A stretch of 64,000 bases of DNA from the IMG/VR virus record IMGVR_UViG_3300044612_002649. The stretch is one strand, 5' to 3'. The stretch comes from an uncultured virus (IMG/VR IMGVR_UViG_3300044612_002649) (taxonomy: Duplodnaviria; Heunggongvirae; Uroviricota; Caudoviricetes). A model generated the notes under the pieces. It was not told the DNA's origin. It was given only the letters and a program-made list of their open reading frames with translations, and did no database searches. The position numbers were made by a program, and so were the translations under genes. Below, piece after piece: positions 36,157 through 59,574 of this stretch; the stretch's first letter is position 1; the number at the start of each line of letters is the position of its first letter.

Positions 36157-36165
36157 AATGTTTAA

Positions 36166-36220: not shown

Positions 36221-36239
36221 AAAACTGTTTATACTATAC

Positions 36240-37998: not shown

Positions 37999-38210
37999 TG
38001 TATCTCCGTTACATTTTTGTTGCCAATATAGTTTTGGCTAATTCTTTTGTTGCGATTAAATCATTCTGACTAAATGAACTTTTAATCTTTTCTGAAAATT
38101 CAATTCTTTCTTCTATTGTCATTAATCTATAAATTATTTTTATCAATTCATAATCAAATTCAGTTGGTTCTTCTAAATTTTCAAACATAAAAGTATTCTT
38201 GTCAGTGTGT

Positions 38211-38543: not shown

Positions 38544-38563
38544 TTGTGCCTCTGTGTTAAAAT

Positions 38564-38637
38564 TGGTGGAGACTAGGAGAGTTGAACTCCTGATAACGCC
38601 GTGCAAGGGCGTGGTTATACCATTTAACTAAATCCCC
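38564..38637 (-). tRNA. tRNA-Ala(TGC)
   Basis: G3.U70 pair, loop CTTGCAC, CCA. Confidence 0.9.
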
Positions 38638-38642
38638 GATAT

Positions 38643-38720
38643 TGGCTCCCATCGCTGGTAACGATCCAGCCTCATTCTCGGTTAACAGCCGAGCGCATTC
38701 ACCATGATTGCTAGATGGGA
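38643..38720 (-). tRNA. tRNA-Asn(GTT)
   Basis: Loop CTGTTAA, GCCA end, atypical T loop. Confidence 0.85.
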
Positions 38721-39418: not shown

Positions 39419-39691
39419 ACTGTTAATCCATTTAACAGTATTTATGCATTTAACAGTTTTATTTAAAATAGTTTTTGATACTGTTGAAAAAAATCAATCA
39501 GTACATCTAACTTTTCCATTGCTTCTTGCTCTGTCATGTTAAATATCCTTTTTGATATATCGACAATTATTCTTTTTATAGTTTAGTATCAAGAGTGAGT
39601 TGTACCAAGATACCGATCATTCAAAATATTGTTATACAATATCTAAATCTCGCACCGCATGTTATTGTAAACTATTTTTTATTTATATTTT

Positions 39692-39753
39692 ATCAGGATG
39701 CGTTTTAACATTTTCAATTTATCAGGATGCGTTTTAACATTTTCAATTTATCA
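39692..39753. repeat. 29-bp tandem duplication of a CAGCA-stem RNA 3' end
   Basis: ATCAGGATGCGTTTTAACATTTTCAATTT occurs twice. Confidence 0.85.
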
Positions 39754-39785
39754 GATTGACGTTTAAAGTTTGCTGAATGCATCCT
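39723..39785 (-). ncRNA. CAGCA-stem RNA carrying an Ile(GAT) anticodon stem-loop
   Basis: AGGATGC / GCATCCTG; TCAAT-CTGATAA-ATTGA. Confidence 0.8.
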
Positions 39786-39794
39786 AAAACTTTA

Positions 39795-39883
39795 CAGGAT
39801 CTTTTATTTAGTGGACTTGAACCACTTAACTTACGATTTAGAGTCGTTTGTATTATCCAAAGGAAAGTTGCTGTAAAGATCCT
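39795..39883 (-). ncRNA. CAGCA-stem RNA carrying a CUA anticodon arm plus T arm
   Basis: ACGA-CTCTAAA-TCGT then AGTGG-TTCAAGT-CCACT. Confidence 0.8.
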
Positions 39884-39889
39884 AAATTT

Positions 39890-39978
39890 TGGCGGAAGAT
39901 GTGAGATTCGAACTCACGCAACCCTTTCGAGGTTGACGGTTTAGCAAACCGCTCCATTAACCACTCTGGCAACCTTCC
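39890..39978 (-). tRNA. tRNA-Ser(GCT)
   Basis: Long variable arm, loop TTGCTAA, GCCA. Confidence 0.92.
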
Positions 39979-39986
39979 TATATTCA

Positions 39987-40072
39987 TGGTAGCCGAGGGC
40001 GGAGTTGAACCGCCACGCCCGAAAGCAATGGATTTTAAGTCCATCATGTACTACCAATTTCATCACTCGGCC
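39987..40072 (-). tRNA. tRNA-Leu(TAA)
   Basis: Loop CTTAAAA, long variable arm, ACCA. Confidence 0.9.
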
Positions 40073-40085
40073 ATTAATTTTGTAT

Positions 40086-40164
40086 CAGGTTAGTTGCTTA
40101 CCTAAAGCTAATCGCATATAGCGACCGGAATCGAACCGACTGTTTATTTTGCTGTAGCTAACCT
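40086..40164 (-). ncRNA. CAGCA-stem RNA with minimal permuted tRNA cargo
   Basis: T arm CGG-TTCGATT-CCG, TCGC-TATAT-GCGA, D-like GCTTTAGGTAAGC. Confidence 0.8.
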
Positions 40165-40173
40165 AACATTTAT

Positions 40174-40308
40174 CAGAATGCATTTTATTTTTTCACCATC
40201 GCGTTTACCAGTTTCGCCACTTAAAACCAGGTTTTAAGGTAGGACTTGAACCTACAAATCAAAGATAACGGTTTCCTATTAATAAAATATAGTTGCTGTA
40301 AGCATTCT
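40174..40308 (-). ncRNA. CAGCA-stem RNA with permuted Leu-type tRNA cargo
   Basis: AGAATGC / GCATTCTG; T arm, CTTAAAAC-CTG-GTTTTAAG, D arm GCGAAACTGGTAAACGC. Confidence 0.85.
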
Positions 40309-40314
40309 AAATCT

Positions 40315-40389
40315 TGGAGGCAGAGGAGGGAATCGAACCCCCGACCTTCGGGTTATGAGCCCGACAATCTACCGCTGATATACTCTGCG
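40315..40389 (-). tRNA. tRNA-Met(CAT), initiator-like, second copy
   Basis: TCGGG-CTCATAA-CCCGA; CCA. Confidence 0.88.
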
Positions 40390-40445
40390 TTAATTCTTTG
40401 TGTATATTATACACGATTTTTTAATCTTGTCAATATTAATTTTAA

Positions 40446-40567
40446 CAGGATCCTTTTTTACGTCGCTCTACCAGACTGAGCTAATCCCCGGTAGTTTTTC
40501 GGGGATGTCGGATTCGAACCGACGACCAACGGCTCCCAATGCAATTATTGTATGCTGAACGGATCCT
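40446..40567 (-). ncRNA. CAGCA-stem RNA with permuted Pro-like tRNA cargo
   Basis: GTCGG-TTCGAAT-CCGAC, ATCCCCG-loop-CGGGGAT, GCTCAGTCTGGTAGAGC. Confidence 0.88.
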
Positions 40568-40765
40568 AAAACTTTAAAATTGTTAAAGAGCTTATTAACT
40601 AATATGTGTACATTATACACTAATTAAATTATATGTCAAGATATTTTTGAATTTAAATCATTAATAATTTGTTTTCCAACTGATTCATACGGCGTGGCTC
40701 CAGTAATCATATCTTGATTATCGTATTTATCCATATATTATACACAAACTAATTTATTAGTCAAT

Positions 40766-42259
40766 TCATTTTTCTAGTACATCATTACCAATAAACATCG
40801 CATTTAAGCTTGTTGTTTTAAACAATTCTATAGCATTTTCTGGAAAGCCAGCTAGTGGTTTGCCAGCGATATTCAAACTGGTGTTTAATAATACTGGGCA
40901 TCCTGTTATTTTATAAAACTCTTCCATCAATGTTCTAAATGTATTATTTGTTCTATCAACAATCTGTATTCTACAAGTTCTATCAACATGTGTAATACCT
41001 GGGAGTTCATCACGCCTGACATTAGCTGTATATAGCATAAATGCATCGTTAACATTAATATCAAAATAATCTTTTGCATACTCTTCCAAAACAGAACCAC
41101 CAAAAGGACGGTATCTTTCTCGTTTTTTGATTTTATTAACTAGATCCTTACTGCATTTCATTCTCGGATCACATAGTATTGATCTATTTCCCAATGCTCG
41201 TGGTCCAATTTCACCATTGCCCTGATACCACCCAATAACATTACCATCTGCCAATAATTTAGCAGCTTTTTTTATAGTATCAATAGTTGGCGTAGATGCT
41301 GGACAAATATCATTTTGAATGTATGGAAAATTGTGTAATGTGAATGGTGGTAATTGATTTTTTATTCGTAACCATTCTATTCCTCCAAGGCTTGTCCCTT
41401 CATCAGATGAATGTGGTGGGATTATAACATTGTTAAAATTCTTTTTTATTTCTGTATTCCAAATAACATTTTGTGCAACTCCACCAGAATAAGTTATAAT
41501 ATCTTCGGACGATGCATATTTTTTAAATAAATCAACTATGATTTCTCCAATTCTTACATGCACAGTATGGATCCAATCAAGTAATGTATTAGCTGATATG
41601 ACTTTATCATTTATAAATGTGTGCCAAGTTTCCGGTGAATAAATGGTATTTATAGAATTTATGTCGAAGTTACGCAAGAACTCAAGAAATTCAGTATGTA
41701 TTCTCCCATAAGATTGAATGCCCATCACTTTTCCAGCAATATCATTGTAGTGTCCAGCGTTAATATTAAGATATTTCCCAGCATCTCTCATCCCCCAGCC
41801 TATTGATCCATTAGTAATATTGCCAAAGGCTATTAATGAGTTATTTTTATACACAGACCATGGCCGTGAATCTCCTAATCCATCTATTACTATATGAATA
41901 GTAGGGGTGACTGAAGATAGCATCCAAGAACTCAATGCATGTGAATAATGATGCCCAATAAACCATATATTTTTATCGTATGGAAGAGAATCGATCAGTA
42001 GTTTAATTCCAGAACCACACACACCACCAAACTTATAATTGTTATGTTTAGATAAGTCAATATCAAGTACTATTTCATCAATATCAGATAATTTAACATC
42101 CCATAAATGTTTTATATCATCAACCCATGCTAATGGATCAGTGTGATGATAACGTTTTATTTGTGTTGATCTTTCAAGTTTATGATAATGTAATTTTTTA
42201 CCATCATAGTAACATATGTTATGATCATGGTTTAATGCTGATATTGATAATAGTTTCAT
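40766..42259 (-). CDS. Carbamoyltransferase (NodU/CmcH family)
   Basis: HHYSHA, DG.GD, GKVMG, GGVAQN, EIGPRALGNRSIL, LLNTSLN. Confidence 0.9.
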   Translation of the reverse strand: MKLLSISALNHDHNICYYDGKKLHYHKLERSTQIKRYHHTDPLAWVDDIKHLWDVKLSDIDEIVLDIDLSKHNNYKFGGVCGSGIKLLIDSLPYDKNIWFIGHHYSHALSSWMLSSVTPTIHIVIDGLGDSRPWSVYKNNSLIAFGNITNGSIGWGMRDAGKYLNINAGHYNDIAGKVMGIQSYGRIHTEFLEFLRNFDINSINTIYSPETWHTFINDKVISANTLLDWIHTVHVRIGEIIVDLFKKYASSEDIITYSGGVAQNVIWNTEIKKNFNNVIIPPHSSDEGTSLGGIEWLRIKNQLPPFTLHNFPYIQNDICPASTPTIDTIKKAAKLLADGNVIGWYQGNGEIGPRALGNRSILCDPRMKCSKDLVNKIKKRERYRPFGGSVLEEYAKDYFDINVNDAFMLYTANVRRDELPGITHVDRTCRIQIVDRTNNTFRTLMEEFYKITGCPVLLNTSLNIAGKPLAGFPENAIELFKTTSLNAMFIGNDVLEK

Positions 42260-42710
42260 TAGTCACGTTCGTATATTTTGCTTCCCATCCATCTTTTTCA
42301 GTAAAAAATCTTACTGCCTTGATATTTGGATATTCACCAGCATCGAACCAATGTTTTACATTAGCAGGAACACTGATTAAATCATTTGGTCCCACATCAA
42401 GTTCATAAACAGTATCAGATACATTAAAAAAGAACTTTGCAGTACCATGAGTAAATAAACGCATTTCATAATCAGTATGATAATGCTCTTTTTTAAACTG
42501 CTCTCTTAATGATTGATAGTTTTTAGTTGAACTATCTAATACAATAGTATCATTGTAAGGAACATCATAATCATATTTTATTTGTTCTATAATGTTCTCA
42601 TCTGTTGGAATTCGAACATATAATACATGAATATTATCTAATTGTCTAGCAATTTCTTCATATTCCACGTAAGTAGTAAAATCTTCTGTTTTATCATAAA
42701 TTTTTAACAT
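42225..42710 (-). CDS. Acireductone dioxygenase-like cupin
   Basis: EHYHTDYEMR...LISVPANVKHWFDAG...AVRFF...GW. Confidence 0.8.
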   Translation of the reverse strand: MLKIYDKTEDFTTYVEYEEIARQLDNIHVLYVRIPTDENIIEQIKYDYDVPYNDTIVLDSSTKNYQSLREQFKKEHYHTDYEMRLFTHGTAKFFFNVSDTVYELDVGPNDLISVPANVKHWFDAGEYPNIKAVRFFTEKDGWEAKYTNVTNETIINISIKP

Positions 42711-42748
42711 ATTACTACTTATCGTTTGCACTATAATAGTGCTAAATT

Positions 42749-42822
42749 TGGCAGCGCGGGAGGGATTTGAACCCCCAAGAATGGTTTTGGAGACCATCAT
42801 GATACAATTTCATCACCAGGCT
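42749..42822 (-). tRNA. tRNA-Trp(CCA)
   Basis: Loop CTCCAAA, GCCA end. Confidence 0.85.
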
Positions 42823-42959
42823 AAAAAAATAAATTCCAGGATAGTTTAATCTCTATGAAACCTCTATCTTCCTATTGAAAGTTATCTGGAACGGGCTAAC
42901 TCACTCTTGTTTATTTTAATAGGTTAAGAGCTTAACCGCCACAAAGGGCTCCTATTGTT

Positions 42960-43049
42960 TGGCGGAAGCGGTGAGATTCGAACTCACGGAACCTTGCGGT
43001 TCGCCAGTTTTCAAGACTGGTGCAATAGGCCATGCTCTGCCACACTTCC
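42960..43049 (-). tRNA. tRNA-Ser(TGA)
   Basis: Loop CTTGAAA, long variable arm. Confidence 0.92.
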
Positions 43050-43086
43050 ATAATTTGGAGGCCGGTCTATGACCTGCCTCAATAAT

Positions 43087-43164
43087 TGGTACCCTCTCTC
43101 AGATTCGAACTGAGACTATACGGTATCTAAAACCGTCTCCTCTACCAGATTGGGATAAGAGGGC
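43087..43164 (-). tRNA. tRNA-Leu(TAG) with short variable loop
   Basis: ACGGT-TTTAGAT-ACCGT; 5-nt variable loop; ACCA. Confidence 0.8.
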
Positions 43165-43251
43165 AAAATTTATTTATTCTAGTTTGCATAAACTATAGAA
43201 TGCTAGATGTCGGTTGTTTTTAATACAAATCATGGATCTATATTAAGTGCT

Positions 43252-43857
43252 TTACTTTATAATTCTTTCAAAATGCACATCTGCCTCATTACCGGTATGA
43301 CATTCGAGCTCTATAAAGCATCTAAATCCTCGCTCTTCTAACCATTTAACCACATCTTCAGTTCGGTTGTCTGTATTTTTATACAAATCTGCTTTATATG
43401 CGGTTTCACACTTTCCACGTTTAATATTGGTTATTTTATCACCTAAACTACGCAAAACATTAAAATCATTACCTTGTGCATCAATCCACAAATATTCTAC
43501 TTCACCTATACCATACATTTCCATAAATGTATCTAGCCGAAGAGTCATCACTCGTGCAATATCAGTGATTTGTAGATTCCTACCAGGCCAGTGCTCATAA
43601 CGATCTTCTTTGAATTCAAATAATGAAGAACAACCCCAATCTTCGACGCCTGCAATATTAAATTGTTTAAATCCATTTGTTAAATCAACAGCAGCTGGAA
43701 TTAGATTCCAATTTGAATTGAATTTAAATTTATTTTGTAAATTTACAACTAATGCTGGCGTTGGCTCGAATGAATACACTATATTCCCAGGATCTTGAAG
43801 AAAAGTAGCGGTATCATGCCCATCTTTTGCACCTATTTCTATAATTGTTTTATTCAT
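43252..43857 (-). CDS. FkbM-family methyltransferase
   Basis: IEIGAKDG, SFEP, WIDAQGND. Confidence 0.85.
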   Translation of the reverse strand: MNKTIIEIGAKDGHDTATFLQDPGNIVYSFEPTPALVVNLQNKFKFNSNWNLIPAAVDLTNGFKQFNIAGVEDWGCSSLFEFKEDRYEHWPGRNLQITDIARVMTLRLDTFMEMYGIGEVEYLWIDAQGNDFNVLRSLGDKITNIKRGKCETAYKADLYKNTDNRTEDVVKWLEERGFRCFIELECHTGNEADVHFERIIK

Positions 43858-43875
43858 AATTCCCTTTTTTATGTT

Positions 43876-43954
43876 TGGCACCCTTGGAAGGACTTGAACC
43901 TCCGACAAACCCACGTTCGTAGCGTGGTGCTCTAATCCACTGAGCTACAAGGGC
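43876..43954 (-). tRNA. tRNA-Arg(ACG)
   Basis: Loop CTACGAA, GCCA. Confidence 0.9.
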
Positions 43955-43964
43955 TTTATTTCAT

Positions 43965-44753
43965 CAGGATCTGCTTTTTACGGTTTCCTATCCACTAGAA
44001 GAACTCTTAAAGTTTGTGTTTGCAATTATCAAAGTGATATCGTTTCATATTTCCAATTCCACCTATTATATCACAATGAGGACAGCATACTTTAACTTGT
44101 GGTCCGCTTTTTATATCTTTGTTCCATGGAGTTTGCAATCCTGTTTTACCTTTATTCCATGGGGTTTGTCCAGTTTTTCCTTTCTTAATAGCAGACATTT
44201 TAGCTCTTTCTGCTGCTGTCCATATTTTTTTAGGTTTATTAGATCTTTGTTCTTTCAATATTGGCATTACTCTACCCAATCTCCAATTGTCAGGAATTGC
44301 AGTGTCAATATCAATAGATCTATTTTCATGTCCGTTTGTTATCCAGCGTCTTCCATACATCGAGTTGTTGTGACCAGTTCTAGTTTTGGCAGCCAGCTGC
44401 ATCTTTCGACGTAACCAACCATATAACTTATTATTTCTATTTTGATTATCACTGGTCACAGTCATCATAGTAGCAGCATATACTAGTGAGTAATTATCAT
44501 ATATTTTAACCAACAATAGATGTGCTACATAATGTTCTTCTGGCGTTAATTTAACCACATTGTCCGGGTCATCTTTCCCGCCCATACATCGTGGAATAAT
44601 ATGATGTTTCTCAAAGTATTCATTATCGAGAAACGTTCTATTTTTTCCACGATGTATTAATTTTTCATATATAATTTTATAGTTCATATAGTATTTATAC
44701 TTATGAACCTACGTTCCCGGCCTGGAATGCTAATTGTATGCGGTATAGATCCT
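43965..44753 (-). ncRNA. CAGCA-stem RNA (CCGCA variant) interrupted by an HNH gene
   Basis: 5' arm AGGATCT at 44753 and 3' arm AGATCCTG at 43965 flank the ORF. Confidence 0.7.
44007..44687 (-). CDS. HNH homing endonuclease
   Basis: HHIIPRCMGG...NVVKLTPEEHYVAH; PWNKG repeats. Confidence 0.9.
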   Translation of the reverse strand: MNYKIIYEKLIHRGKNRTFLDNEYFEKHHIIPRCMGGKDDPDNVVKLTPEEHYVAHLLLVKIYDNYSLVYAATMMTVTSDNQNRNNKLYGWLRRKMQLAAKTRTGHNNSMYGRRWITNGHENRSIDIDTAIPDNWRLGRVMPILKEQRSNKPKKIWTAAERAKMSAIKKGKTGQTPWNKGKTGLQTPWNKDIKSGPQVKVCCPHCDIIGGIGNMKRYHFDNCKHKL

Positions 44754-44762
44754 AAAATTGTT

Positions 44763-45038
44763 TTACTTCAATTGTGACTTTCTAAACATTCGGTCCAATT
44801 TAGTATTGATATCTTTGCAGAGTTGTTCAGATCGTTCTGCTGCTTTTACTGCATTATCAACTTTTGAACTAACAGTTGATAGAGCGCGATTAGTATCTAC
44901 TAATCCAGTACTCAATGTTTTTTGATTTGTAGTAATTACATCGATTTCACCTTGTAATTTGGCGATATCTGTGTTTGTTGCACATCCAGTAACCAATGCT
45001 AAAGCACCAACCATGAATAACATATTTAATTTTCTCAT
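44763..45038 (-). CDS. Lpp/OprI-like alanine-zipper lipoprotein
   Basis: Lipobox VTGC; coiled coil; KLDRMFRKS end. Confidence 0.75.
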   Translation of the reverse strand: MRKLNMLFMVGALALVTGCATNTDIAKLQGEIDVITTNQKTLSTGLVDTNRALSTVSSKVDNAVKAAERSEQLCKDINTKLDRMFRKSQLK

Positions 45039-45063
45039 TTTACACCTTTGTTAATTAAAATCA

Positions 45064-45154
45064 CAGGATGATATATTGTTTCGGAGCCGGGAGATTCGAA
45101 CTCCCAGAAGATACCCGCTTATCGGCTTCGGCATTTTTGTGCTGTAATCACCCT
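45064..45154 (-). ncRNA. CAGCA-stem RNA with T-arm cargo
   Basis: AGGGTGAT / ATCATCCTG; GGGAG-TTCGAAT-CTCCC. Confidence 0.75.
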
Positions 45155-45164
45155 TATTAATCAG

Positions 45165-45578
45165 TTAAGATAATCGTTCTTTTTCTGATTCCATAAAGCG
45201 TGTTCGTTTTACAAGTGATAAAACGAATTCTGACTCAGCAATTGATTTGGAATCAAGATCAACTCGCAAGTTCAAGAAGTAAGAAACATCATTATGAACC
45301 AGTTTAATGGAACTATAGTCTGTTACTTCCGCAGTGAATGATTTTGGAATTTGAATTACAACATCCATCAATCGTTCGAAATGTTTATCCGCATCAACAA
45401 AGTATTGTTCAACAAATGTTTTTAAGTGATGTGGTGTATTTCTTAATGTTTCGGATTTATAGTTTCTATAATTTCCGACTGAAACTGTTACCGCTTCAAT
45501 AAGGTCAGTACCAGTGTATCTAGGATACTCAGGGATTAAGTTGTAAGGTTTTTTTACTTCTTGTTCAATTACTAGCAT
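45165..45578 (-). CDS. Hypothetical protein
   Basis: ORF with GGA RBS. Confidence 0.55.
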   Translation of the reverse strand: MLVIEQEVKKPYNLIPEYPRYTGTDLIEAVTVSVGNYRNYKSETLRNTPHHLKTFVEQYFVDADKHFERLMDVVIQIPKSFTAEVTDYSSIKLVHNDVSYFLNLRVDLDSKSIAESEFVLSLVKRTRFMESEKERLS

Positions 45579-45606
45579 TATATCATTCCGATAATAGTTA
45601 AAAAAT

Positions 45607-45680
45607 TGGCAGGGATACACGGATTCGAACCATGGATGACTGGATCAAAACCAGTTGTGTTACCACTACACCATATCCCA
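45607..45680 (-). tRNA. tRNA-Gln(TTG)
   Basis: U1-start, loop TTTTGAT, GCCA. Confidence 0.9.
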
Positions 45681-45690
45681 ATTGTTATTA

Positions 45691-45808
45691 CAGGTTAGCA
45701 TTTTAAGTTTTCCCAATTAAACTACATTAGTGACCAACCCTAACGCTGGGATTCGAACCCAGAACTTTCTTTTACAATAAGATTTAATAAAATTGCTGAA
45801 ACTAACCT
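45691..45808 (-). ncRNA. CAGCA-stem RNA with permuted tRNA cargo
   Basis: CTGGG-TTCGAAT-CCCAG, CGTTAG-loop-CTAATG, GTTTAATTGGGAAAAC. Confidence 0.85.
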
Positions 45809-45848
45809 ATTGGTCTTATTCGCTGGTGACTAGCCTCGAATATTCTGT

Positions 45849-45911
45849 CAGGATACACATTTTACGGGTTTGATTAGCTGTCAAATGTATGATTGTTGCT
45901 GTAGGTATCCT
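45849..45911 (-). ncRNA. CAGCA-stem RNA with a 7-nt-loop hairpin (GCT triplet)
   Basis: AGGATAC / GTATCCTG; TTTGA-CAGCTAA-TCAAA. Confidence 0.75.
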
Positions 45912-45967
45912 AGAACTGTTTATGCTATGTATTATACATCATTTTTATTCATTGTCAATATTTATTT

Positions 45968-46042
45968 TGGAGCGGGTAATGAGATTCGAACTCACGACAT
46001 TCAGGTTGGCAACTTGAAGCTCTACCACTGAGCTATACCCGC
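45968..46042 (-). tRNA. tRNA-Gly(GCC)
   Basis: Loop TTGCCAA, TCCA. Confidence 0.9.
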
Positions 46043-46049
46043 TCAAAAT

Positions 46050-46124
46050 TGGCGGACTGTACGGAATTTGAATCCGTGATACCACCGTGACAGGGTGGCG
46101 TGATAACCGCTTCACTAACAGTCC
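46050..46124 (-). tRNA. tRNA-Asp(GTC)
   Basis: Loop CTGTCAC, GCCA. Confidence 0.9.
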
Positions 46125-46246
46125 AAAATTGTTGAGTATCTAACATCATACAATACTCGGGAGACCTCTACCAGCCTCGTTTTTATTACTGAGCCTATCC
46201 GAAGATAGTGTTTAAAATGATATTAAGGTTGCCCAGCTCTAGAGTT

Positions 46247-46323
<77 letters not shown>

Positions 46324-46629
46324 ATAATTCTATTTAAACGGAGTTTTTTCACAGGCTAATGCATGATGATATGCTATTTTCATAGACTCATATTTTTCCG
46401 TTGCTTCGCTTAATTGTTGCTGTAATTTTAGCATATCTTGTTCTACATAATCAAGATTTCTTTTAACGATATCCGATGTTCTTTTACCTGCCATATATAG
46501 ACCTTTTAGAAATAAAAGAATCACCCCAGTCGGTAGCATGAAATACCGCATATTTTTTAGATTTTTCACCATGTTTTTCATGGAATTTTTTAGTAGCTTC
46601 TTCGTTTACTATTGCGGTTCTTTTCATAC

Positions 46630-47004
46630 TTACCTCGCAAATCCACGATTTCTCAGTAATTGTGATAATTCATATTCGAATGTACCAAAATCAGACCTTT
46701 CACGCCCATAAATTGTATCAGGAACAATAATACCAATACTAGTCAATGCATTGTCAATCGATGGTTCATTAAAAATCGCCCATGGATATTCGTTTGTTTC
46801 ATTGTTTAACAAATTGACAATGTTTGCCATCTGTTCACTAGTACCACCATTCAATACAATTGCAGTTTTGTGGTTTTCAGCCCAATCTACCAATAGTTCG
46901 TTAGTTGTACCATATTTGTTGTTGATCTCTTGCAGTGCATGCAAAGATTGTATACCGTGTTGTATAGAACTCAGGTACATGTTTGTTAAAAAATAAGCTC
47001 TCAT
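46630..47004 (-). CDS. Phage Pth2-fold (peptidyl-tRNA hydrolase-like) protein
   Basis: LSSIQHGIQSLHA...W...HKTAIVLNGG...F.EP...LTSIG. Confidence 0.6.
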   Translation of the reverse strand: MRAYFLTNMYLSSIQHGIQSLHALQEINNKYGTTNELLVDWAENHKTAIVLNGGTSEQMANIVNLLNNETNEYPWAIFNEPSIDNALTSIGIIVPDTIYGRERSDFGTFEYELSQLLRNRGFAR

Positions 47005-47079
47005 AGTTTTCCTATATGTTACTGAGTATTTATTATTTGAGGTTATCAATCATCTGGGTAGTTACCAAAACTAATTAGG

Positions 47080-47153
47080 GGTGACCGATAGGACTTGAAC
47101 CCATAAAATTCTGAATCACAATCAGGGTCGTCTACCAATTCCGACACGGCCAC
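47080..47153 (-). tRNA. tRNA-His(GTG), no encoded CCA or G-1
   Basis: Loop TTGTGAT, discriminator C. Confidence 0.8.
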
Positions 47154-47171
47154 ACCTAATTAGTCTAATTT

Positions 47172-47654
47172 TATAATAAACCACACTACGGAAGGATTCG
47201 AACCTTCGGTTGCCGTCGCACTCAACACGCCAGTGTACCTCGATACGAATCGAACGTATCTTACCACCATTTATAGTGTAGTTTATTATATAATCATATA
47301 GTAAAGTGCATTAAACGAGGGAACACGAATGCTACACATCCTCCTGTCTCCGGCCCTCAAGCTTAACATCCTTCTGGCCAGTGATGTTAAGGTGACTGAT
47401 TAATACACTTTAATATAAAATTATATAGAAACACATGCTGAAGGACGAACGGCGTATTTCCATCGAAGAACTATATCTTTCTCATCGCCGTATAGCTTCC
47501 CGCACGATATAGTCTGAGTTGCGCTTCAGGATGTGTTTTTATATAATCATATAATAAAGCATACTACACGGAATTGAACCGTCTTCATTCAAGCCCGGAG
47601 CTCAAACTGTGATCCACACAACGCTGATCAGACGCTAATATGCTTTATTATATG
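47172..47654 (-). ncRNA. Tandem array of four long-terminal-stem RNA units (family 2)
   Basis: Units 47172-47290, 47297-47416, 47421-47546 and 47548-47654, each closed by an approx. 16-20-bp AT-rich imperfect inverted repeat. Confidence 0.65.
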
Positions 47655-47657
47655 ATT

Positions 47658-47733
47658 TGGTAGGACCGCCGAGACTCGAACTCGAATTCCCGGATTAAAA
47701 GTCCGGTGTTCTAACCAATTGAACTACGATCCC
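47658..47733 (-). tRNA. tRNA-Lys(TTT)
   Basis: CCGGA-CTTTTAA-TCCGG; ACCA. Confidence 0.92.
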
Positions 47734-47799
47734 AAATTTTCTTGCCTTCTTTTTCTGTTTTTGTCTTTCGTTTCATAATTATTTCCTATGTTGTTATAG

Positions 47800-47861
47800 C
47801 AGGATACGTTTTTACTAGTTGAATTAAAAGTTCAGTGTAAATTGTTTGCTGAATGTATCCT
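47800..47861 (-). ncRNA. CAGCA-stem RNA carrying a Lys(TTT) anticodon stem-loop
   Basis: AGGATAC / GTATCCTG; TGAA-CTTTTAA-TTCA. Confidence 0.8.
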
Positions 47862-47894
47862 AAAACTGTTTATGCTGTTAATTATACAGCATTT

Positions 47895-48221
47895 TTATAC
47901 GTTGTCAATTATTTTATCTGGATATTGTGCATCACGGCGTTCAATTTCAGCATATGGACTGTAGCCAGGCTGTAATTCCGTGATATTAGTAAATCCATTG
48001 GTTTCTGTAATCAAACTATCATTAGAATCGATAGAACCACGATATTTACTACCATAACTACCTTCTAATTTACCAGTACTCGGATTAAGATCACCCCATT
48101 TAGTGTGATTACCACCGATAACTTCAATATAGTAGGTTTTACCAGTTCGGTATGAATAAACAACATGTCTACCGGTATCTTCAGTTTTTGTAAAAAATTT
48201 CTTTCGGGTTTCTTCGTCCAT
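47895..48221 (-). CDS. Hypothetical phage protein
   Basis: ATG at 48221 after AAGGA. Confidence 0.65.
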   Translation of the reverse strand: MDEETRKKFFTKTEDTGRHVVYSYRTGKTYYIEVIGGNHTKWGDLNPSTGKLEGSYGSKYRGSIDSNDSLITETNGFTNITELQPGYSPYAEIERRDAQYPDKIIDNV

Positions 48222-48239
48222 AATAGTTTCCTTTGTGTT

Positions 48240-48313
48240 TGGTGCTTTAGAAATGAATCGAACCTCTGTCTGCTCGGTGTAAACGAACGGCCCTACCATT
48301 AGACGACTAAAGC
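48240..48313 (-). tRNA. tRNA-Val(TAC)
   Basis: Loop TTTACAC, ACCA; weak T stem. Confidence 0.75.
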
Positions 48314-48492
48314 TATAATTGTTGCTTTCTTATTCCCGGCTATCACAGAGGTTGCCACTTGTACTTCATGGTTCTCAACTTGCAGGTTCTGGCGGAACAG
48401 AATTCTCGTATTGCCAACGTGCTTTTGGTTCAAAGCATACCACCCGTGTGTATCACCACACTTCTTATCCTCTGGGTCAGAGTATCCGTTGA

Positions 48493-48780
48493 TTAGACGG
48501 TTCGTTCTTCAAGTACTTGTTGTTCCCATTTACTTTTTAAATAGATTTTTTTACCATGCAACCAATATTCTTCTTCTGTGAAATTAGTAATAACAGCAGG
48601 GCCGTGTTCATTATGATATTTCCCATCTTGGCAATAACAAGTTCTGCGGCCATCATATCTAATAATTGCTGGTCCATCTGTGTTATGCGATCTTCCATTT
48701 TTCATAAAAACTGTTGTTGTATCAGATACGCTAATAGTGAGTTCAGGATTGTCTGGGTTAATATATTCCATAATTACCAA
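48493..48780 (-). CDS. Hypothetical protein with HxxxGPA repeats
   Basis: HNTDGPA and HNEHGPA. Confidence 0.6.
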   Translation of the reverse strand: MVIMEYINPDNPELTISVSDTTTVFMKNGRSHNTDGPAIIRYDGRRTCYCQDGKYHNEHGPAVITNFTEEEYWLHGKKIYLKSKWEQQVLEERTV

Positions 48781-48796
48781 ATTGTAAAGTTAAAAT

Positions 48797-48872
48797 TGGT
48801 GCTACCGACTGGGATCGAACCAGTATAGCTGGATTTTCAGTCCAGTGCATGAACCATCACTGCCACAGTAGC
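48797..48872 (-). tRNA. tRNA-Phe(GAA)
   Basis: Loop CTGAAAA, ACCA. Confidence 0.9.
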
Positions 48873-48880
48873 AAAATTAT

Positions 48881-48934
48881 CAGGATACGCTTTTTCATTT
48901 TTCAAGAATGTTTTTTAATTGCTGCATGTATCCT
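48881..48934 (-). ncRNA. CAGCA-stem RNA carrying a Ser(TGA) anticodon stem-loop
   Basis: AGGATAC / GTATCCTG; CATT-CTTGAAA-AATG. Confidence 0.8.
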
Positions 48935-48957
48935 AAAACTGTGTAAATTATAACGTA

Positions 48958-49488
48958 TTATTTGAACATTTGCAAGATATTTTTCATAGCATCTGTATTA
49001 CTATCCCATGTTTGTCCGCCAAATCGTCCGTATTCTATACGGTTATCAGCAGACCATTTATTATAATAATCGGACAATTCACCATTGCATTCCAATAGTG
49101 TATCACCGTAATTGATTATCATTACATTAGGATTCATGCAATCACGAATTGAATAAACCTTCTCAAACGCTTCTTTAATACCCATGCCATGTTGTATTAG
49201 TACTAGAATAGCAGTTGCTGTACTTCTACTAACACCAGCATGACAATGAATTAAAACTTTATCAGTATCAGTAAATGTTTTACTGAATTCTAAAATATTT
49301 TCAATATTTTGTAAAGTAGGATGTTGATATCCTTCTAATGGTACTTCAATATCATGAAATCTTTCTACGTGATGTTCCACATCACAATCAAATACTTTGG
49401 TATTTGGATCAACAATGCTAATGACTTTAGTATGGGTTGGTACCCATAAACTTGCTTCGTATAATCCTGATATAGTTATATCTAACAT
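48958..49488 (-). CDS. Protein-tyrosine/dual-specificity phosphatase fold
   Basis: HCHAGVSRS CX5R motif. Confidence 0.88.
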   Translation of the reverse strand: MLDITISGLYEASLWVPTHTKVISIVDPNTKVFDCDVEHHVERFHDIEVPLEGYQHPTLQNIENILEFSKTFTDTDKVLIHCHAGVSRSTATAILVLIQHGMGIKEAFEKVYSIRDCMNPNVMIINYGDTLLECNGELSDYYNKWSADNRIEYGRFGGQTWDSNTDAMKNILQMFK

Positions 49489-49504
49489 TTTTTACCTCAA
49501 AAAT

Positions 49505-49556
49505 TGGCGGGGCTATAATTGCTGTTAAAATCCTTGACAGGATTTATTTTGGCCCC
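49505..49556 (-). ncRNA. Inside-out CAGCA-stem RNA with acceptor stem and CCA end
   Basis: GGGGCCA...ATCCTG-TC-AAGGAT...CAGCA...TAGCCCC-GCCA. Confidence 0.6.
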
Positions 49557-49564
49557 ATTATATT

Positions 49565-49640
49565 TGGCGACCCTACCCGGTGACGATCCGGGTTTACTAT
49601 CGTGAAAGGATAGTGTTCTACCAACGTAAACTATAGGGTC
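49565..49640 (-). tRNA. tRNA-Glu(TTC)
   Basis: Loop CTTTCAC, GCCA; atypical T loop. Confidence 0.85.
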
Positions 49641-50467
49641 TTATTTTTCGTATATTGGTTTCTACCCGTAATATTCCCAGGTGTTACCCGTTTTCCATTA
49701 CAAGTTCTTGAACAATATACATTAATTGTTTTTAATTTTTTATCACGTGTAAAATTTTTACCACAATGTGAACATGTGTACTCGTATAAAGGTTTATACC
49801 CATCGTATAGTGTATAATATTTTTCAGTATTATAAGTTTCTTTTACATATGTAAAAGCATATTTCAAATCATTAAATCGTAAAACATGTACATTATATCC
49901 AAAACTTTCAGCAACCTGTGTTTTTAAATCCACTGATTTTTGATTTTCATAACCTTTTGTTTCTATTATAGTTTTATTATCCGATAAAATAAAATCAGGG
50001 TAATATTTAATACCATTTCTTTCCAAATAACCGTCAAATCTAGAAAATTTAATATTATGATCTAAATTGTATATTACCCAGCATAATTCATATGTTGATC
50101 CACAATAAATGCCATTATAATATCCTGATTTTGATCTACCAGAACCATTTCTATATCCACCTATGTGTTTGGAACTACATTCTTTTGAACAATATTTTTT
50201 ATTACTCGTTTTTATTATTCTAAAATCTGTTCCACACTCTACACATTGTCTAATCTCACGAATAGCAAATTCTTTGCCTTTTGTAGAGGCAGGTTTAATA
50301 CCTAGCTTCTTAAATGTAAGAGATGTTTTTATCTTTTGTTCTTCACTTGGTTTCCATCCAGAGTCTTTCCGTTTTCTGTTATTATATTTCGCTGAACACG
50401 ATCTATTACAAAACTTTTTTGCATCTTTACTGATTAAAGTGTTTCCACATTCTAAACAATTATTCAT
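49631..50467 (-). CDS. Putative PD-(D/E)XK homing endonuclease with Cys-rich repeats
   Basis: STYE...YYPDF...IETKG; FCNRSC and YCSKEC; stop lies inside tRNA-Glu. Confidence 0.8.
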   Translation of the reverse strand: MNNCLECGNTLISKDAKKFCNRSCSAKYNNRKRKDSGWKPSEEQKIKTSLTFKKLGIKPASTKGKEFAIREIRQCVECGTDFRIIKTSNKKYCSKECSSKHIGGYRNGSGRSKSGYYNGIYCGSTYELCWVIYNLDHNIKFSRFDGYLERNGIKYYPDFILSDNKTIIETKGYENQKSVDLKTQVAESFGYNVHVLRFNDLKYAFTYVKETYNTEKYYTLYDGYKPLYEYTCSHCGKNFTRDKKLKTINVYCSRTCNGKRVTPGNITGRNQYTKNKTL

Positions 50468-50524
50468 CTGTAATCTCCATATAGAGTATTTATATGGAAT
50501 TGAACTTTATTGCATTTTTTGATT

Positions 50525-50554
50525 ATAGTGTTCTAACCATTAAACTACCAGGAT
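50525..50554 (-). pseudogene. 5' fragment of a tRNA
   Basis: ATCCTGG-TA-GTTTAATGGTTAGAAC-ACTAT; shares AGAACACTAT with tRNA-Glu. Confidence 0.65.
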
Positions 50555-50562
50555 ATAAACTT

Positions 50563-50672
50563 TTATATAGAAACACACTCGTTTCTGAGCTTTCGGTATG
50601 TATGCCTACACTTTAGGATAGCCCCTGCGTCCAGTTGCTCAGTATCCCTACCGTGAATGTGTTTTTATATAA
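50563..50672 (-). ncRNA. Long-terminal-stem RNA unit (family 2)
   Basis: TTATATAGAAACACA...TGTGTTTTTATATAA; same ends as the unit at 47421-47546. Confidence 0.65.
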
Positions 50673-50674
50673 AT

Positions 50675-50753
50675 TGGTCTCCGTAGCAGGATTTGAACCT
50701 GCGAATCCTCTCGATCCCAAATCGAGCGCTCTACCAAACTGAGCTATACGGAG
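50675..50753 (-). tRNA. tRNA-Pro(TGG)
   Basis: Loop TTTGGGA, ACCA. Confidence 0.9.
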
Positions 50754-50766
50754 ATAATTAAAATAT

Positions 50767-50859
50767 TGGTGGGTGTCCACGGATTCGAACCGCGAATGTT
50801 TACCACGAGGGACTTGATTTACAGTCAAGAGAGGCACACGCCATAGCCTCAAGACACCC
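50767..50859 (-). tRNA. tRNA-Tyr(GTA)
   Basis: Loop CTGTAAA, long variable arm, atypical D arm. Confidence 0.8.
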
Positions 50860-50861
50860 AA

Positions 50862-51199
50862 TAATTTATAACACTCTCCCACTATGTGTTTAGACGGTTC
50901 GTAGCCGAATGAAGAGTGTATATTAAAACATACTCACTTTAACTTGTCAAGAACCGTAATTCTTAATGCTGATCTAGTATGTTTTAATATTAAAACACAC
51001 TGGTGGGTCGTTCAAATCCACTGTCTACATTCCGTAGAAATCAAATTCTACTATTCTCAATGTGTTTTAATATTAAATCTAACAGCACCATAAACAGGCG
51101 GTCCATATATCTTTACGATACCGCTCTTTGGGATAAGCAAAGGCTCGCTGCCCCAATTAAGTATGCTCTTATCTACTAGCCAAGCTATTAGATTTAATA
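50862..51199 (-). ncRNA. Tandem long-terminal-stem RNA units (family 2)
   Basis: Units approx. 50862-50924, 50921-50989, 50988-51071 and 51071-51199 with TATTAAA...TTTAATA-type ends. Confidence 0.55.
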
Positions 51200-51305
51200 A
51201 TGCCACGACATCCGTAGCTTGTCTATTGAAATTATCTCCAGAACCCCCTGCTTTCCGAAACTTTTTAAGTGTTTCCAGTGCCAGGTGCACCATTCACTGT
51301 GTAGC

Positions 51306-51335
51306 TATTATATTCTGTGTTTCTGTGTCTGTCAA
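51306..51335 (-). promoter_or_regulatory. Sigma70 consensus promoter
   Basis: TTGACA-N17-TATAAT. Confidence 0.8.
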
Positions 51336-51360
51336 CTACTTTTTTAAGGAGTCTAAAACT

Positions 51361-51392
51361 AAAAAACCCTGAGAGTTTTCACTTTCAGGGTT
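51361..51392 (-). terminator. Intrinsic terminator of the putative attenuator
   Basis: AACCCTGA...TCAGGGTT followed by TTTT. Confidence 0.8.
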
Positions 51393-51420
51393 CTTTGAAA
51401 AATTAACTTATAATATTAAA

Positions 51421-51558
51421 TTATGTCTTCAAAGAACCCTCACGATACTCCGGTGTGCGATCATTAATTAAACTAAATGCACACCATACAGACGCAATCG
51501 AGCCGCCTTTTAAGGTTGATTGTAGTTTAAATTGTTGATGTAATGATTGCATTTCCAT
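51421..51558 (-). CDS. Putative attenuator leader peptide (45 aa)
   Basis: AAAGGA RBS; its 3' codons are complementary to the terminator 5' arm. Confidence 0.65.
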   Translation of the reverse strand: MEMQSLHQQFKLQSTLKGGSIASVWCAFSLINDRTPEYREGSLKT

Positions 51559-51608
51559 TTGTATCAATTTTCCTTTAATTTCATCAGTTGGGGTCAACCG
51601 ATGAAGCG

Positions 51609-51638
51609 TATTATACAATTATTTAGTTTCTTTGTCAA
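51609..51638 (-). promoter_or_regulatory. Sigma70 consensus promoter upstream of the leader peptide
   Basis: TTGACA-N17-TATAAT. Confidence 0.8.
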
Positions 51639-51734
51639 GCACTTTTTAAAAAAGTTTTTATTTTTTTTATAATTGTATTTTTATTTAGTAAAAATTCTTA
51701 TTTACTAGTCAAAATAGCTGTTTTTCAGCATATT

Positions 51735-52187
51735 TTAGTAGAGTGTTAAGAATTCTACTACATTGGTGTGAAGTTCATTATAAATTTTATCACCCCATGT
51801 TACAGCATCTTGTTCAGTAACCCTAAAATTATAGTTTTCTGGTTGAATGAACAATTTATTTGTATCATTGTATCTGCTTTTTTCAATGGTGTCAACCCAT
51901 ATTGTGATAGTTGGGTTAATAATTTCCCTAAATTCAGGTAATGGTGCTACCATATCTATTAGTATATAGCCATTTTCAACCTCATCAGCAAAATTTTTCA
52001 TTCGTTGTGCTTGACGAAGTCTCCCATCATATGAAAAATCCCAATCATTAAATTTTTCTCTTACTTCATCGGCATTGTACCAATGAACTTGGTAATCTGC
52101 AAGTTCTAATTTCTTTTTTAGTTCATTGGCTAGGGTAGTTTTACCAGAGCCCGGTAATCCCATGATCAAAATTGTTTTTTTACTCAT
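51735..52187 (-). CDS. Adenylylsulfate-kinase-like P-loop protein
   Basis: GLPGSGKTT; NADEVR...DFS..GRLRQA. Confidence 0.75.
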   Translation of the reverse strand: MSKKTILIMGLPGSGKTTLANELKKKLELADYQVHWYNADEVREKFNDWDFSYDGRLRQAQRMKNFADEVENGYILIDMVAPLPEFREIINPTITIWVDTIEKSRYNDTNKLFIQPENYNFRVTEQDAVTWGDKIYNELHTNVVEFLTLY

Positions 52188-52286
52188 ATAATTCATCAGT
52201 TTCTGAAAAATGGCTTCAAACAAGCCTTACGAATGTATTTAGTACCATTTGGTTGACTGTCTATTAAAAAATCAGATTTTTTTACA

Positions 52287-52865
52287 TTACAAAGATACAG
52301 GATCCAACAATACCGGTGTATCACCACGTACCATAATGTTAGATTCTCTTAAATCTAAATCATAGACGATATTATCGCACCAATACTTCAAAAATTTGTA
52401 AATCCACGGGAATTTATTGATTGATCTCTTTTGATGATTACTGAGTTCATGATATGATCGTCGATCAATCAAAGAATAGGCCATATCATCTATAACAACT
52501 GAAATCTTATCATATTCACCAGGTAATAACGGGTGTAGTTTCTCTAATCTCACCAGATATGTATCTGAAGTAATTTGTATTATCCCACCTTTAATTTTAG
52601 GTAGATTAGGATTGTCCTGATTGCTTAATACGTATCTAATGAAGCACAAATAGGCATCATCACCACGAAATATCTTAAACACCCAAGAATAACCAGGATA
52701 CATATATGCAGAACCATTTGAACCACTACCAAGATGTTCAAAACCATAATGATTCATTACATCTTTCCATTGTTCGAATTGATCATCTAATTTTACATCC
52801 CTACAATCTTGCTCAAATATTTCTTTAGCTTTAATGTATAAAGAATTTCTTTTATACCCAATCAT
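52287..52865 (-). CDS. Protein-kinase-like fold protein
   Basis: LGSGSNG, VFK, DLRESNIM, LLDP. Confidence 0.65.
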   Translation of the reverse strand: MIGYKRNSLYIKAKEIFEQDCRDVKLDDQFEQWKDVMNHYGFEHLGSGSNGSAYMYPGYSWVFKIFRGDDAYLCFIRYVLSNQDNPNLPKIKGGIIQITSDTYLVRLEKLHPLLPGEYDKISVVIDDMAYSLIDRRSYHELSNHQKRSINKFPWIYKFLKYWCDNIVYDLDLRESNIMVRGDTPVLLDPVSL

Positions 52866-52889: not shown

Positions 52890-53420
52890 ATACTAAAGGA
52901 GAACTAACGTTCTCCTGTTCTTCGCTATCGCTCATCACATTTTTTATAATTTCTATCTTACCTATTCAACTAGATTACGATTTACTTTTGCCCCCATAAA
53001 GGGAGCAAAAAAATAATTTCAACTGAGTTGACTTCATTAGTAGAGTTACACTGGTTACAGAGGCGGTTGGCCGATACCTCGAAGTGCGTTTTTGTTTCTG
53101 TTGTCCAACGGTGGCATTAGGAAAATACTCTACCATATTCCTAATACGTCCAGGAATTACCTGGTCATTTAGCCTTTTTATCTTTTGTTTAAACATTCGA
53201 AATTGGTTGTACGTAGGCGTATCCAATCATCATTTGCATCACAATGTGCAAGTAGTCGAATGAGTCGCTGCTTCTACTCAGCTGTTTCCCTCCATGCGAA
53301 GAACATTCCATTTCCTGGGGCACCTGTCAAACCACCGGTGCGAGTGTATCAGAAGTGTATAGCCTGAAAAAGTGCCTGTGAAATCATATTTATCGTTGCC
53401 TAAATTTATTTGCCTAATGC
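52890..53420 (-). ncRNA. Candidate large structured non-coding RNA
   Basis: About 530 nt, GC-enriched, many hairpins, own promoter at 53424-53453. Confidence 0.45.
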
Positions 53421-54004: not shown

Positions 54005-54393
54005 AATTTTTCCTTGAATAATTTTTGGCATAAAAAAACCCAAGCCAACTTGATGGATCAAGCCGATACTTGGGTAAAAAAAGGAGTTTTTTAAATTGTT
54101 AAAAAGTCTTGTAATCTATAACTGTTTCATAATTCTTATTATATCAAATTTTATATTGTATGTCAATTACTATTTATAGTAACAGTCTTGGGGTTCTAGA
54201 TATTTCCTCTCAATAGGTTTCACAGCTTTTCCATAGCTCTACCTATATTATGCACTTTTTCCTGACTGTGACAGGGAACACAGTAACTTAAGCATACTAT
54301 ACACAGTCTAACTGTTCTCTATGAAAACTCTCTGTTTACCCTTTGCTACGGGCGTGTTCCTTACCGTGCTGGTCTATACTATAAAAATAAAAT

Positions 54394-54795: not shown

Positions 54796-54870
54796 TGGTG
54801 CACCCGATGGGATTCGAACCCATTGTCGCAAGTTTTAGAGGCTTGTGCTATACCTAGTAGCTTCGGGTGC
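54796..54870 (-). tRNA. tRNA with CUA anticodon (amber suppressor)
   Basis: CAAGC-CTCTAAA-ACTTG; GCACCCG/CGGGTGC-ACCA; canonical T arm. Confidence 0.8.
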
Positions 54871-58808: not shown

Positions 58809-58841
58809 AATACCCTTTTGAATGTGAATGTGTAAAAAGAT

Positions 58842-59215
58842 AGTAGGGATTTCTCCCTACTAGGTATTTTTGGTTATAAGGTATTTCCTACCCCAGAATT
58901 CGCTGGTTATTAAGCAGCGATAGCATCAAAGATGCCATCTACAGTGTAGAATTCAAATTTAGAATCGTTTGCGATTACTATGTTTATGCTGATTAGGTCA
59001 GTCATCTCTCCTGTTGCCTTCTCTAACTCTTCGCCCAATCGAATCCAATACAGCCCCATCATAAAAACATAGATACTCCCCTTTTAAGGGGCAGGGAGTT
59101 TATGGCTATGGCCCCACTCTGATACCAACCTATGTTCTTATGGTGGAGCTGGCGGGTTTCGAACCCGCGTCTTGAACGCTTCCTCGTTGAAGGAATTACA
59201 ACAATTCTGTATATC
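58842..59215 (-). ncRNA. ssrA: Circularly permuted (two-piece) tmRNA
   Basis: Acceptor piece ending CAGCTCCACCA (59141) precedes GGGGCTG (59057); tag ANDSKFEFYTVDGIFDAIAA at 58972-58910; outer ends approximate. Confidence 0.9.
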
Positions 59216-59574
59216 TATACCGCACACCCTTGCGACTTCAGCCTGTTAAGGTAGAGCTACTAAATAGAACTCTATGACTTCTATATGTTAGCATAGATAA
59301 ATTAAATATCTAACTATGGTTCAATAATGGCGTACCACTCCTGATCATTTATACTATGTACCAGATTTAAGTTAGACTATTTGCTTATTATAGCATTATA
59401 TTTATATTTGTCAAGAATTATTTGTTACGTTTTACACGTGCTTTTGTTCTTGGTTGACCGGTTACTTTGTTATTTCTACTTCTAGCCATTTTCGGTACCT
59501 CTGTTGTTTAAGATGAGCTTATTATACATCAGCCAAACGTGATGTCAAGCATTTTTTAATAAATACTACTATTA

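Follow-up and report, generated by a model that had tools for sequence, protein, structure and literature searches.

Leader-peptide attenuators are found in amino-acid operons of bacteria, namely trp, his, leu, thr, ilv and pheA. RNA hairpins at the ends of short genes are also put to another use in T7-like phages, in which RNase III processing hairpins lie between the early genes; these sites are not known to share bases with a terminator. The tRNA arrays of phages, in turn, are thought to sustain translation when host tRNAs are degraded or are mismatched to the codon use of the phage.

A further point of comparison is provided by the attenuators governed by a stalled ribosome on an upstream ORF (uORF), among which one published account names vmlR of Bacillus subtilis together with msrD and bmrCD (PMC9226507). 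As described there, ribosome stalling on the vmlR uORF favours an antiterminator over an intrinsic terminator; the uORF has three codons and lies inside an anti-antiterminator, termination is the default, NusG-dependent pausing is needed and the controlled gene is without a promoter of its own (PMC9226507). Among the titles and abstract openings covered by a literature search, we found no paper in which attenuation or a leader peptide is connected with the tRNA array of a phage. Here we describe a phage locus at which an earlier note, made from the sequence alone, had proposed just such an attenuator-like switch: a leader peptide using all 20 amino acids would act as a general sensor of tRNA loss or translation arrest and thereby induce the tRNA array downstream of it.

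Setting and parts of the leader cassette

The window, i.e., the whole 64,000-nucleotide stretch of viral DNA that we analysed, is AT-rich (G+C ~33%), and most of it is found in DNA runs labelled lake water or freshwater. The leader cassette is carried on two contigs of 292 and 306 kb, and its source is a giant freshwater phage of roughly 300 kb. A BLAST search of positions 50800-52300 against phage records gave zero matches; in the nearest record (G001) only another copy of the promoter, adjoining tRNA-Cys, is matched and the cassette is absent. The placement of the cassette at the head of the tRNA array, as given in the earlier note, holds for the 24 tRNA genes downstream of it and fails for one tRNA with a CTA anticodon and a tmRNA, both upstream of it and both also found in relatives (Table 1). 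The two kinase-like genes upstream code for a P-loop kinase (162 aa), which the L024 and L028 lineages lack at this position, and a homologue of the T7 gp0.7-type protein kinase (192 aa), which lies ~0.7 kb upstream of the cassette and belongs to a family whose name mentions RNase III regulation. The window contains 20 perfect promoters of the form TTGACA-N16-18-TATAAT against an expectation of 0.23; all of these are on the minus strand, and in many the -35 hexamer is closely preceded by an A-rich stretch and then AGT.

Table 1. Positions of the leader cassette, its parts and the surrounding features in the window
Feature	Position	Strand	Remarks
tRNA genes (n = 25)	window	minus	
24 tRNA genes	34812-50859	minus	downstream of cassette
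tRNA, anticodon CTA	54796-54870	minus	upstream of cassette; amber-suppressor type, ARAGORN call Pyl
tmRNA, permuted, beta-type	58819-59233	minus	upstream of cassette; 20-residue tag
Polynucleobacter-1 RNA motif	53191-53346	minus	64.6 bits vs gathering score 37
Two kinase-like genes	51735-52865	minus	upstream of cassette
Promoter P1, TTGACA-17-TATAAT	51610-51638	minus	12/12 match; hexamers kept in all relatives
5'-terminal hairpin of P1 transcript, 11 bp, loop ACCC	51580-51605	minus	-14 kcal/mol, z -4.2
Shine-Dalgarno-like AAGGA	51571-51575	minus	AGGA (51574-51571) 12 nt before AUG
Leader ORF, 45 codons + TAA	51421-51558	minus	ATG 51558, TAA 51423-51421
Long-range helix, 5' strand (UGAUAC, UGG of AUG region, UGC)	51549-51566	minus	pairs with 51443-51458
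Long-range helix, 3' strand (GCA, CCG, GUAUCG; codons 34-39)	51443-51458	minus	
Antiterminator arm 1 (last ORF codons)	51426-51440	minus	perfect 13 nt at 51428-51440
Stop codon and inner 7-bp stem-loop of antiterminator	51402-51425	minus	
Arm 2, common to antiterminator and terminator	51387-51401	minus	
Intrinsic terminator hairpin, 8+3 bp core, GAAA loop, U6 run	51361-51396	minus	-18.6 kcal/mol
Promoter P2	51307-51335	minus	12/12 match; begins 26 nt past U-run

Both consensus promoters recognized in the earlier note, one at the head of the leader and another just past its terminator, proved to be perfect. P2 is kept in all lineages, with the -10 hexamer reading TATAAA in L019, in which the terminator U-run is also reduced to U4. 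The 5'-terminal hairpin is likewise kept in all lineages, with one compensatory pair. Its form in the window is the exact reverse complement of that in L030, the loop reading GGGT in all other relatives and in the RNA-library contigs; the palindrome is inverted as one unit between the window and L030. The ribosome-binding site and the 45-codon ORF described earlier are both present, with a spacing that is atypical: among the 26 long ORFs with the core motif, 25 have a shorter one, which in 18 is 5-7 nt, and only one has a longer one. AAGGA is also kept in L019, at a spacing of 11 nt. Contigs from two metatranscriptome runs of one sample and study span 51438-51590, ending 2 nt into arm 1, and add 17-20 loose letters in agreement with the flipped form of the 5' hairpin; such contigs show no strand, RNA ends or translation, and the library may contain DNA. 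The interval 51324-51507 is bridged in a run that is probably of DNA.

Several other RNA elements were observed in the window. The Polynucleobacter-1 motif lies directly 3' of a promoter matching the consensus at 11 of 12 positions (53453-53425). On the minus strand, the interval 54038-54166 comprises a perfect promoter, a 4-codon ORF and, last, a strong hairpin (-19 kcal/mol) that ends in a U7 run and directly precedes the likely ATG start (54003) of an ORF listed as 199 aa; this layout separates a promoter from its gene by a terminator-like element. An inverted repeat of 14 nt without mismatches (34807-34820 and 34878-34891) flanks tRNA-Cys (34812-34884) and lengthens its acceptor stem well past the tRNA. 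tRNA-Lys (47733-47658), alone among the 25 tRNAs, is preceded by an ORF that both has a ribosome-binding site and is enriched in cognate codons. This 21-codon ORF (47775-47713, minus strand) follows the perfect promoter at 47908-47881, contains 6 Lys codons behind a ribosome-binding site (GGAAA) at good spacing, and enters the 5' half of the tRNA; the ribosome-binding site, ATG and first codons are kept in L022, with the DNA further upstream being unalignable. Between P2 and tRNA-Tyr, the minus-strand RNA of 50860-51300 is highly structured (-126.9 kcal/mol, z -4.5), with three long hairpins closed by repeated UUUAAUAUUAAAACA-type arms; it has no Rfam match, and a 78-codon ORF in it is not kept open in L019. 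The RNA-library contig X15, which comes from another strain with 10 differing letters, joins 50993 to 51081 and omits the 87 nt in between (50994-51080). The gap is edged by a 20-nt inverted repeat (50983-51002 and 51058-51077) and may represent a strain deletion or a removed hairpin module.

Conservation of the cassette, the reading frame and the peptide

An exact search with the sequence of arm 2 and the terminator recovered 8 viral contigs from IMG/VR, and an independent search with the peptide recovered the same 8; a metagenome scan added 3 more, resulting in 11 relative DNA loci. Three further loci from an 18-mer scan (L025, L026 and L031), obtained beside the 8 true ones, were dropped as chance loci. 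Four DNA types can be recognized: the window with L030; L021, L028 and L018; L023 and L024; and the divergent L019 and L022. In all four the cassette lies just upstream of a same-strand tRNA array. The DNA directly past P2 and the gene before P1 both vary among the types, marking the P1-to-P2 cassette as a conserved unit of its own. Protein searches yielded 11 distinct variants of the peptide, 42-46 residues in length, of which P0009 is the most distant; in a profile search, four long proteins (P0008 and P0010-P0012) partly match the middle of the profile. The comparison of the arms covers the 11 DNA loci, with the divergent P0005, P0006, P0007 and P0009, from ENA or Logan contigs, being compared as peptides only. 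A degenerate pattern for the P0009-type C-terminus recovered 0 viral contigs.

Conservation between the window and L019 is distributed very unevenly along the cassette. Codons 1-39 of the ORF are identical at 70 of 120 positions and the 5' UTR at 34 of 51; arm 1 with the stop codon is identical at 20 of 21 and arm 2 with the terminator at 35 of 35. The loop between the arms retains 16 of 22 positions, and its six changes fall in the apical loop or the junction, sparing both the 13-bp arms and the inner 7-bp stem. Among the 11 relative loci, the arms do not vary. The arm pairing is conserved without covariation, compensatory changes being confined to the 5' hairpin and the long-range helix.

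The reading frame is open in 11 of the 11 relative loci, with a conserved AUG and AAGGA. Relative to L019, all four indels inside the ORF are multiples of three (3, 6, 3 and 3 nt), as against none of the four outside it (2, 1, 1 and 1 nt). Neither lineage has a stop in the ORF frame, whereas each of the other frames has 3-5; the probability of the frame staying open after 50 random substitutions is P = 0.088. The indel pattern, the open frame and the conserved AUG and AAGGA argue for translation of the leader ORF. The peptide, as judged from substitutions, looks unconstrained: over codons 2-35 the dN/dS between the window and L019 is 1.04 (8.0 synonymous changes in 19.3 sites and 30 non-synonymous changes in 70.7 sites). 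Codons 36-45 show 0 synonymous changes in 7 synonymous sites and a single non-synonymous change in the same comparison, and these frozen codons coincide with the RNA pairing, codons 40-45 forming arm 1 and codons 34-39 the 3' strand of the long-range helix. Such a signature, with an open frame, a drifting peptide and the last ten codons frozen by RNA pairing, could be used to find regulatory ORFs elsewhere.

We found no family for the peptide in PHROGs, NCBIfam, Pfam or the ESM Atlas. The best AlphaFold model (mean pLDDT 68.6) is a beta-hairpin with pLDDT values of 80-88 at residues 11-30 and below 50 at residues 40-45; the other four models reach only 52-57, and a fold search with the model was set aside since the confidence is too weak. 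Positions 21 and 28 show an I/F swap in P0003 and P0005, which together with the moderate-confidence predicted beta-hairpin hints at a folded peptide.

The leader ORF uses all 20 kinds of amino acids in its 45 codons without any runs, Ser being the commonest (6 of 45). For the window alone this is what chance would give and is not significant: random draws from the composition of this phage yield all 20 in 1.2-2.4% of cases at 42-46 residues, sliding windows of real ORFs do so in 0.9% at 42 residues (115/12,472) and 1.5% at 45 (185/12,289), and the leader ORF is the one such case among the 59 ORFs of 40-50 aa in the window. Across the family, all 20 are kept in 9 of the 11 variants, with P0006 lacking F and P0007 lacking A, D and W. 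When the shared residues are fixed, the rest redrawn and independence assumed, the probability of at least three of the five divergent lineages keeping all 20 is 0.027; the L019 type has lost each of A, C, D, F, I and N at the positions at which the window has them and carries them at others (P = 0.047). We regard this retention as suggestive, not decisive, and the notion of an all-20 sensor that induces the array has weak support (retention p ~0.03 across the family). The GC-rich codons singled out as unusual in the earlier note (GGC, TCG, GCG, CGC and CCG) do have low within-family shares (0.06-0.11), although the codon adaptation of the leader is only mildly unusual, at the 14th percentile. 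Under strict wobble, the phage tRNAs read 42 of the 45 leader codons, versus 82% of the codons in long ORFs. The rare GC-rich codons were also considered as a conserved stall site or helix; this was rejected, the local helix being broken in L019, which has fewer rare codons.

Competing hairpins and the modelled ribosome

The perfect 13-nt complement reported between the last codons of the ORF (51440-51428) and a segment overlapping the 5' arm of the terminator (51399-51387) was confirmed, with no further copy of either arm anywhere in the window. There are 7 perfect inverted repeats of at least 13 nt with a loop of at most 60 nt in the window, against 0.16 in Markov-1 random sequences, and the complement is no chance match. 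When folded, the arms form 15 bp followed by a 2x2 internal loop and the inner 7-bp stem (-24 kcal/mol, z -7.0). Since the six bases AACCCU are common to arm 2 and the 5' arm of the terminator, the antiterminator hairpin and the terminator are mutually exclusive. The whole transcript, at its minimum energy, folds with the antiterminator formed and the terminator absent (-71 kcal/mol, z -5.9), and the L019 transcript, folded independently, shows the same architecture (z -3.8). The long-range helix, in which UGAUAC pairs with GUAUCG, UGG with CCG and UGC with GCA, is recovered in both of these folds and by RNAalifold, and two of its pairs are altered on both sides in L019, in which most inner helices of the window's fold are broken. 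Of the 22 terminator-like sites found in the window by a simple scan, the leader terminator is the only strong one (-12 kcal/mol or better) that is fully overridden by upstream pairing. In the folding model without a ribosome, the global folds with the antiterminator (-69.6 kcal/mol) and with the terminator (-67.7 kcal/mol) are only ~2 kcal/mol apart, since the terminator can form with seven antiterminator pairs still in place; the bias toward the antiterminator would therefore rest mainly on the order of synthesis.

We modelled ribosome stalls by masking a 28-nt footprint, from -15 to +12 relative to the A site, and folding the RNA available with the polymerase at the U-run. With the A site at codons 1-36, all 13 antiterminator pairs are retained, with a tie at codon 29; at codons 37-38 the predicted outcome is mixed; and from codon 39 through the stop all 8 terminator pairs form. 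With the footprint masked at the stop, the terminator is predicted in all five variants tested.

From these observations and models, we tentatively read the element as a three-segment, ribosome-dependent transcription attenuator, a reading that we place a little short of probable. P1 would give rise to a ~240-nt transcript whose only ORF would matter through its translation rather than its peptide. We infer that this ORF is translated, that translation is coupled to the polymerase, and that both termination and read-through take place. With no ribosome, or with one held in codons 1-36, arm 1 would pair with arm 2 and AACCCU would be withheld from the terminator, and RNA polymerase would continue through P2 into the tRNA array. 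With a ribosome close behind the polymerase, at codon 39 or beyond or at the stop, arm 1 would be covered, arm 2 would pair with arm 3 and transcription would end at the U-run. In the finished transcript, the long-range helix between the AUG region and codons 34-39 probably closes the start site, in which case only the first, coupled ribosome would count. On this model, the leader probably reports how well translation runs. Should the modelled behaviour hold, the leader would be a viral case of ribosome-mediated attenuation whose logic is unusual, in that the untranslated transcript reads through.

A bolder version of the attenuator, in which the leader gauges total decoding capacity through the lag of the first ribosome behind RNA polymerase, appears improbable to us. 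On this view, the only strong terminator before the array would be opened by shortage or cleavage of any tRNA or whenever translation is arrested in general, with host defences attacking tRNAs as one possible trigger; the opened terminator would then add transcription from P1 and from further upstream to that from the array's own promoters. The sensing stretch in the model, codons 1-36, holds 19 of the 20 kinds of amino acids, with Tyr 38 at the border.

The consequences for the array are likely to be limited. Seven perfect promoters lie between the terminator and the end of the array (at 51335, 47908, 45958, 40639, 40433, 37712 and 36268), and a simple scan detects no other minus-strand terminator-like site between 51363 and 31844. 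The leader element is thus the one gate before the array, and the array is not dependent on it: read-through from P1 can only add to an already strong drive, and with a perfect P2 26 nt past the terminator and six further promoters in the array it can change little. Any effect of the element on the neighbouring tRNA genes is accordingly doubtful. Thus, the anatomy of the attenuator proposed in the earlier note is supported by the stall geometry (as modelled), the invariant arms and terminator and the evolutionary pattern, and induction of the array in the form put forward there, given the array's own seven perfect promoters, is not supported. Besides these promoters, the points that count against the attenuator are the ~2 kcal/mol margin, the invariance of the arms, the 12-nt spacing of the ribosome-binding site, the hints of a folded peptide and a dN/dS of ~1, which is compatible with a non-coding RNA as well.

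Three other explanations of the locus were considered. It could be an ordinary early unit with a small, fast-evolving phage peptide and a normal terminator, in which the hairpin at the stop codon stabilises or processes the RNA, for example through RNase III, and nothing is switched. Small promoter-gene units are the rule on a strand with 20 perfect promoters, RNase III substrates are of the size of this hairpin, with its 15 + 7 bp and 2x2 internal loop, and a T7 gp0.7 kinase homologue is encoded nearby; a functional peptide would also sit well with the best AlphaFold model, the I/F swap and the retention of the peptide in 11 variants. We nevertheless hold this explanation to be rather unlikely, in view of the dN/dS of 1.04 over codons 2-35 and the low scores of the other four AlphaFold models. 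Moreover, the best-conserved residues, 36-45, are exactly those encoded by the paired RNA, with their synonymous sites frozen and the last six falling below a pLDDT of 50, and a terminator would serve poorly as a plain one when a stronger hairpin, made before it, holds its 5' arm, yet it is conserved at every position.

Alternatively, the cassette could specify a structured non-coding or dual-function phage small RNA of ~240 nt, made up of the 5' hairpin, a closed body and the terminator, with the ORF being incidental and the conserved, unpaired codons 6-9 acting by base pairing. Its very stable fold in both lineages, the enclosure of its body by a long-range helix with two compensatory pairs, the dN/dS of ~1 and the long ribosome-binding-site spacing are all in keeping with this, as are structured RNA neighbours such as the Polynucleobacter-1 motif, the tmRNA and the hairpin modules of 50860-51300. 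The indels in threes within the ORF alone, the frame that stays open in every lineage amid stops in the other frames, and the conserved AUG and AAGGA speak for a decoded ORF instead; with the inner helices of the window mostly broken in L019 and no Rfam match, we consider a small RNA of this kind quite unlikely. That the complementarity is a DNA-level palindrome, for instance a site of protein binding or recombination, and plays no part in the RNA is highly improbable. The 5' hairpin, which differs by inversion as a unit between the window and L030, does indicate that palindromes here undergo events at the DNA level, but the substitutions follow the boundaries of the RNA stem and loop, including an inner stem with a G-U pair, arm 2 is shared with a canonical terminator followed by a U-run, and the arms have no other copy in the window.

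Comparison with known attenuators and processing sites

No Rfam family passes its gathering threshold in the region of the leader cassette. At E values up to 10, the best match is His_leader, which covers the terminator part only (23.4 bits versus a gathering score of 49, E 0.22), and the rest are chance matches. Compared with the T7 RNase III sites, the leader hairpin, a candidate RNase III substrate, is similar in being a near-continuous helix of ~20 bp or more (~22 bp in all) that contains an internal loop and stands where an early gene has its 3' end, near a gene for a gp0.7-like kinase; it differs from them in that it shares bases with a terminator. Compared with vmlR, the leader would resemble that system in taking as its signal the state of translation rather than one amino acid, and would differ from it in its long ORF, its default of read-through and its lack of a known pause element.

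As in the attenuators of amino-acid operons, the leader cassette has a short ORF directly after a promoter, an intrinsic terminator and, competing with it, a second hairpin that rules it out by sharing the bases of its 5' arm, with the position of the ribosome selecting the structure according to our modelling. It differs from them in having three segments instead of four, as a result of which the untranslated leader RNA would read through rather than terminate, and in having 45 codons without a single-amino-acid run and a perfect promoter past its terminator; it is also borne by a phage and followed by tRNAs, not biosynthetic enzymes. Two features typical of attenuators, namely a leader enriched in codons for the amino acid being sensed and downstream genes that rely on read-through, are lacking here, and we therefore place the leader as a variant of the leader-peptide attenuators rather than as a member of that class.
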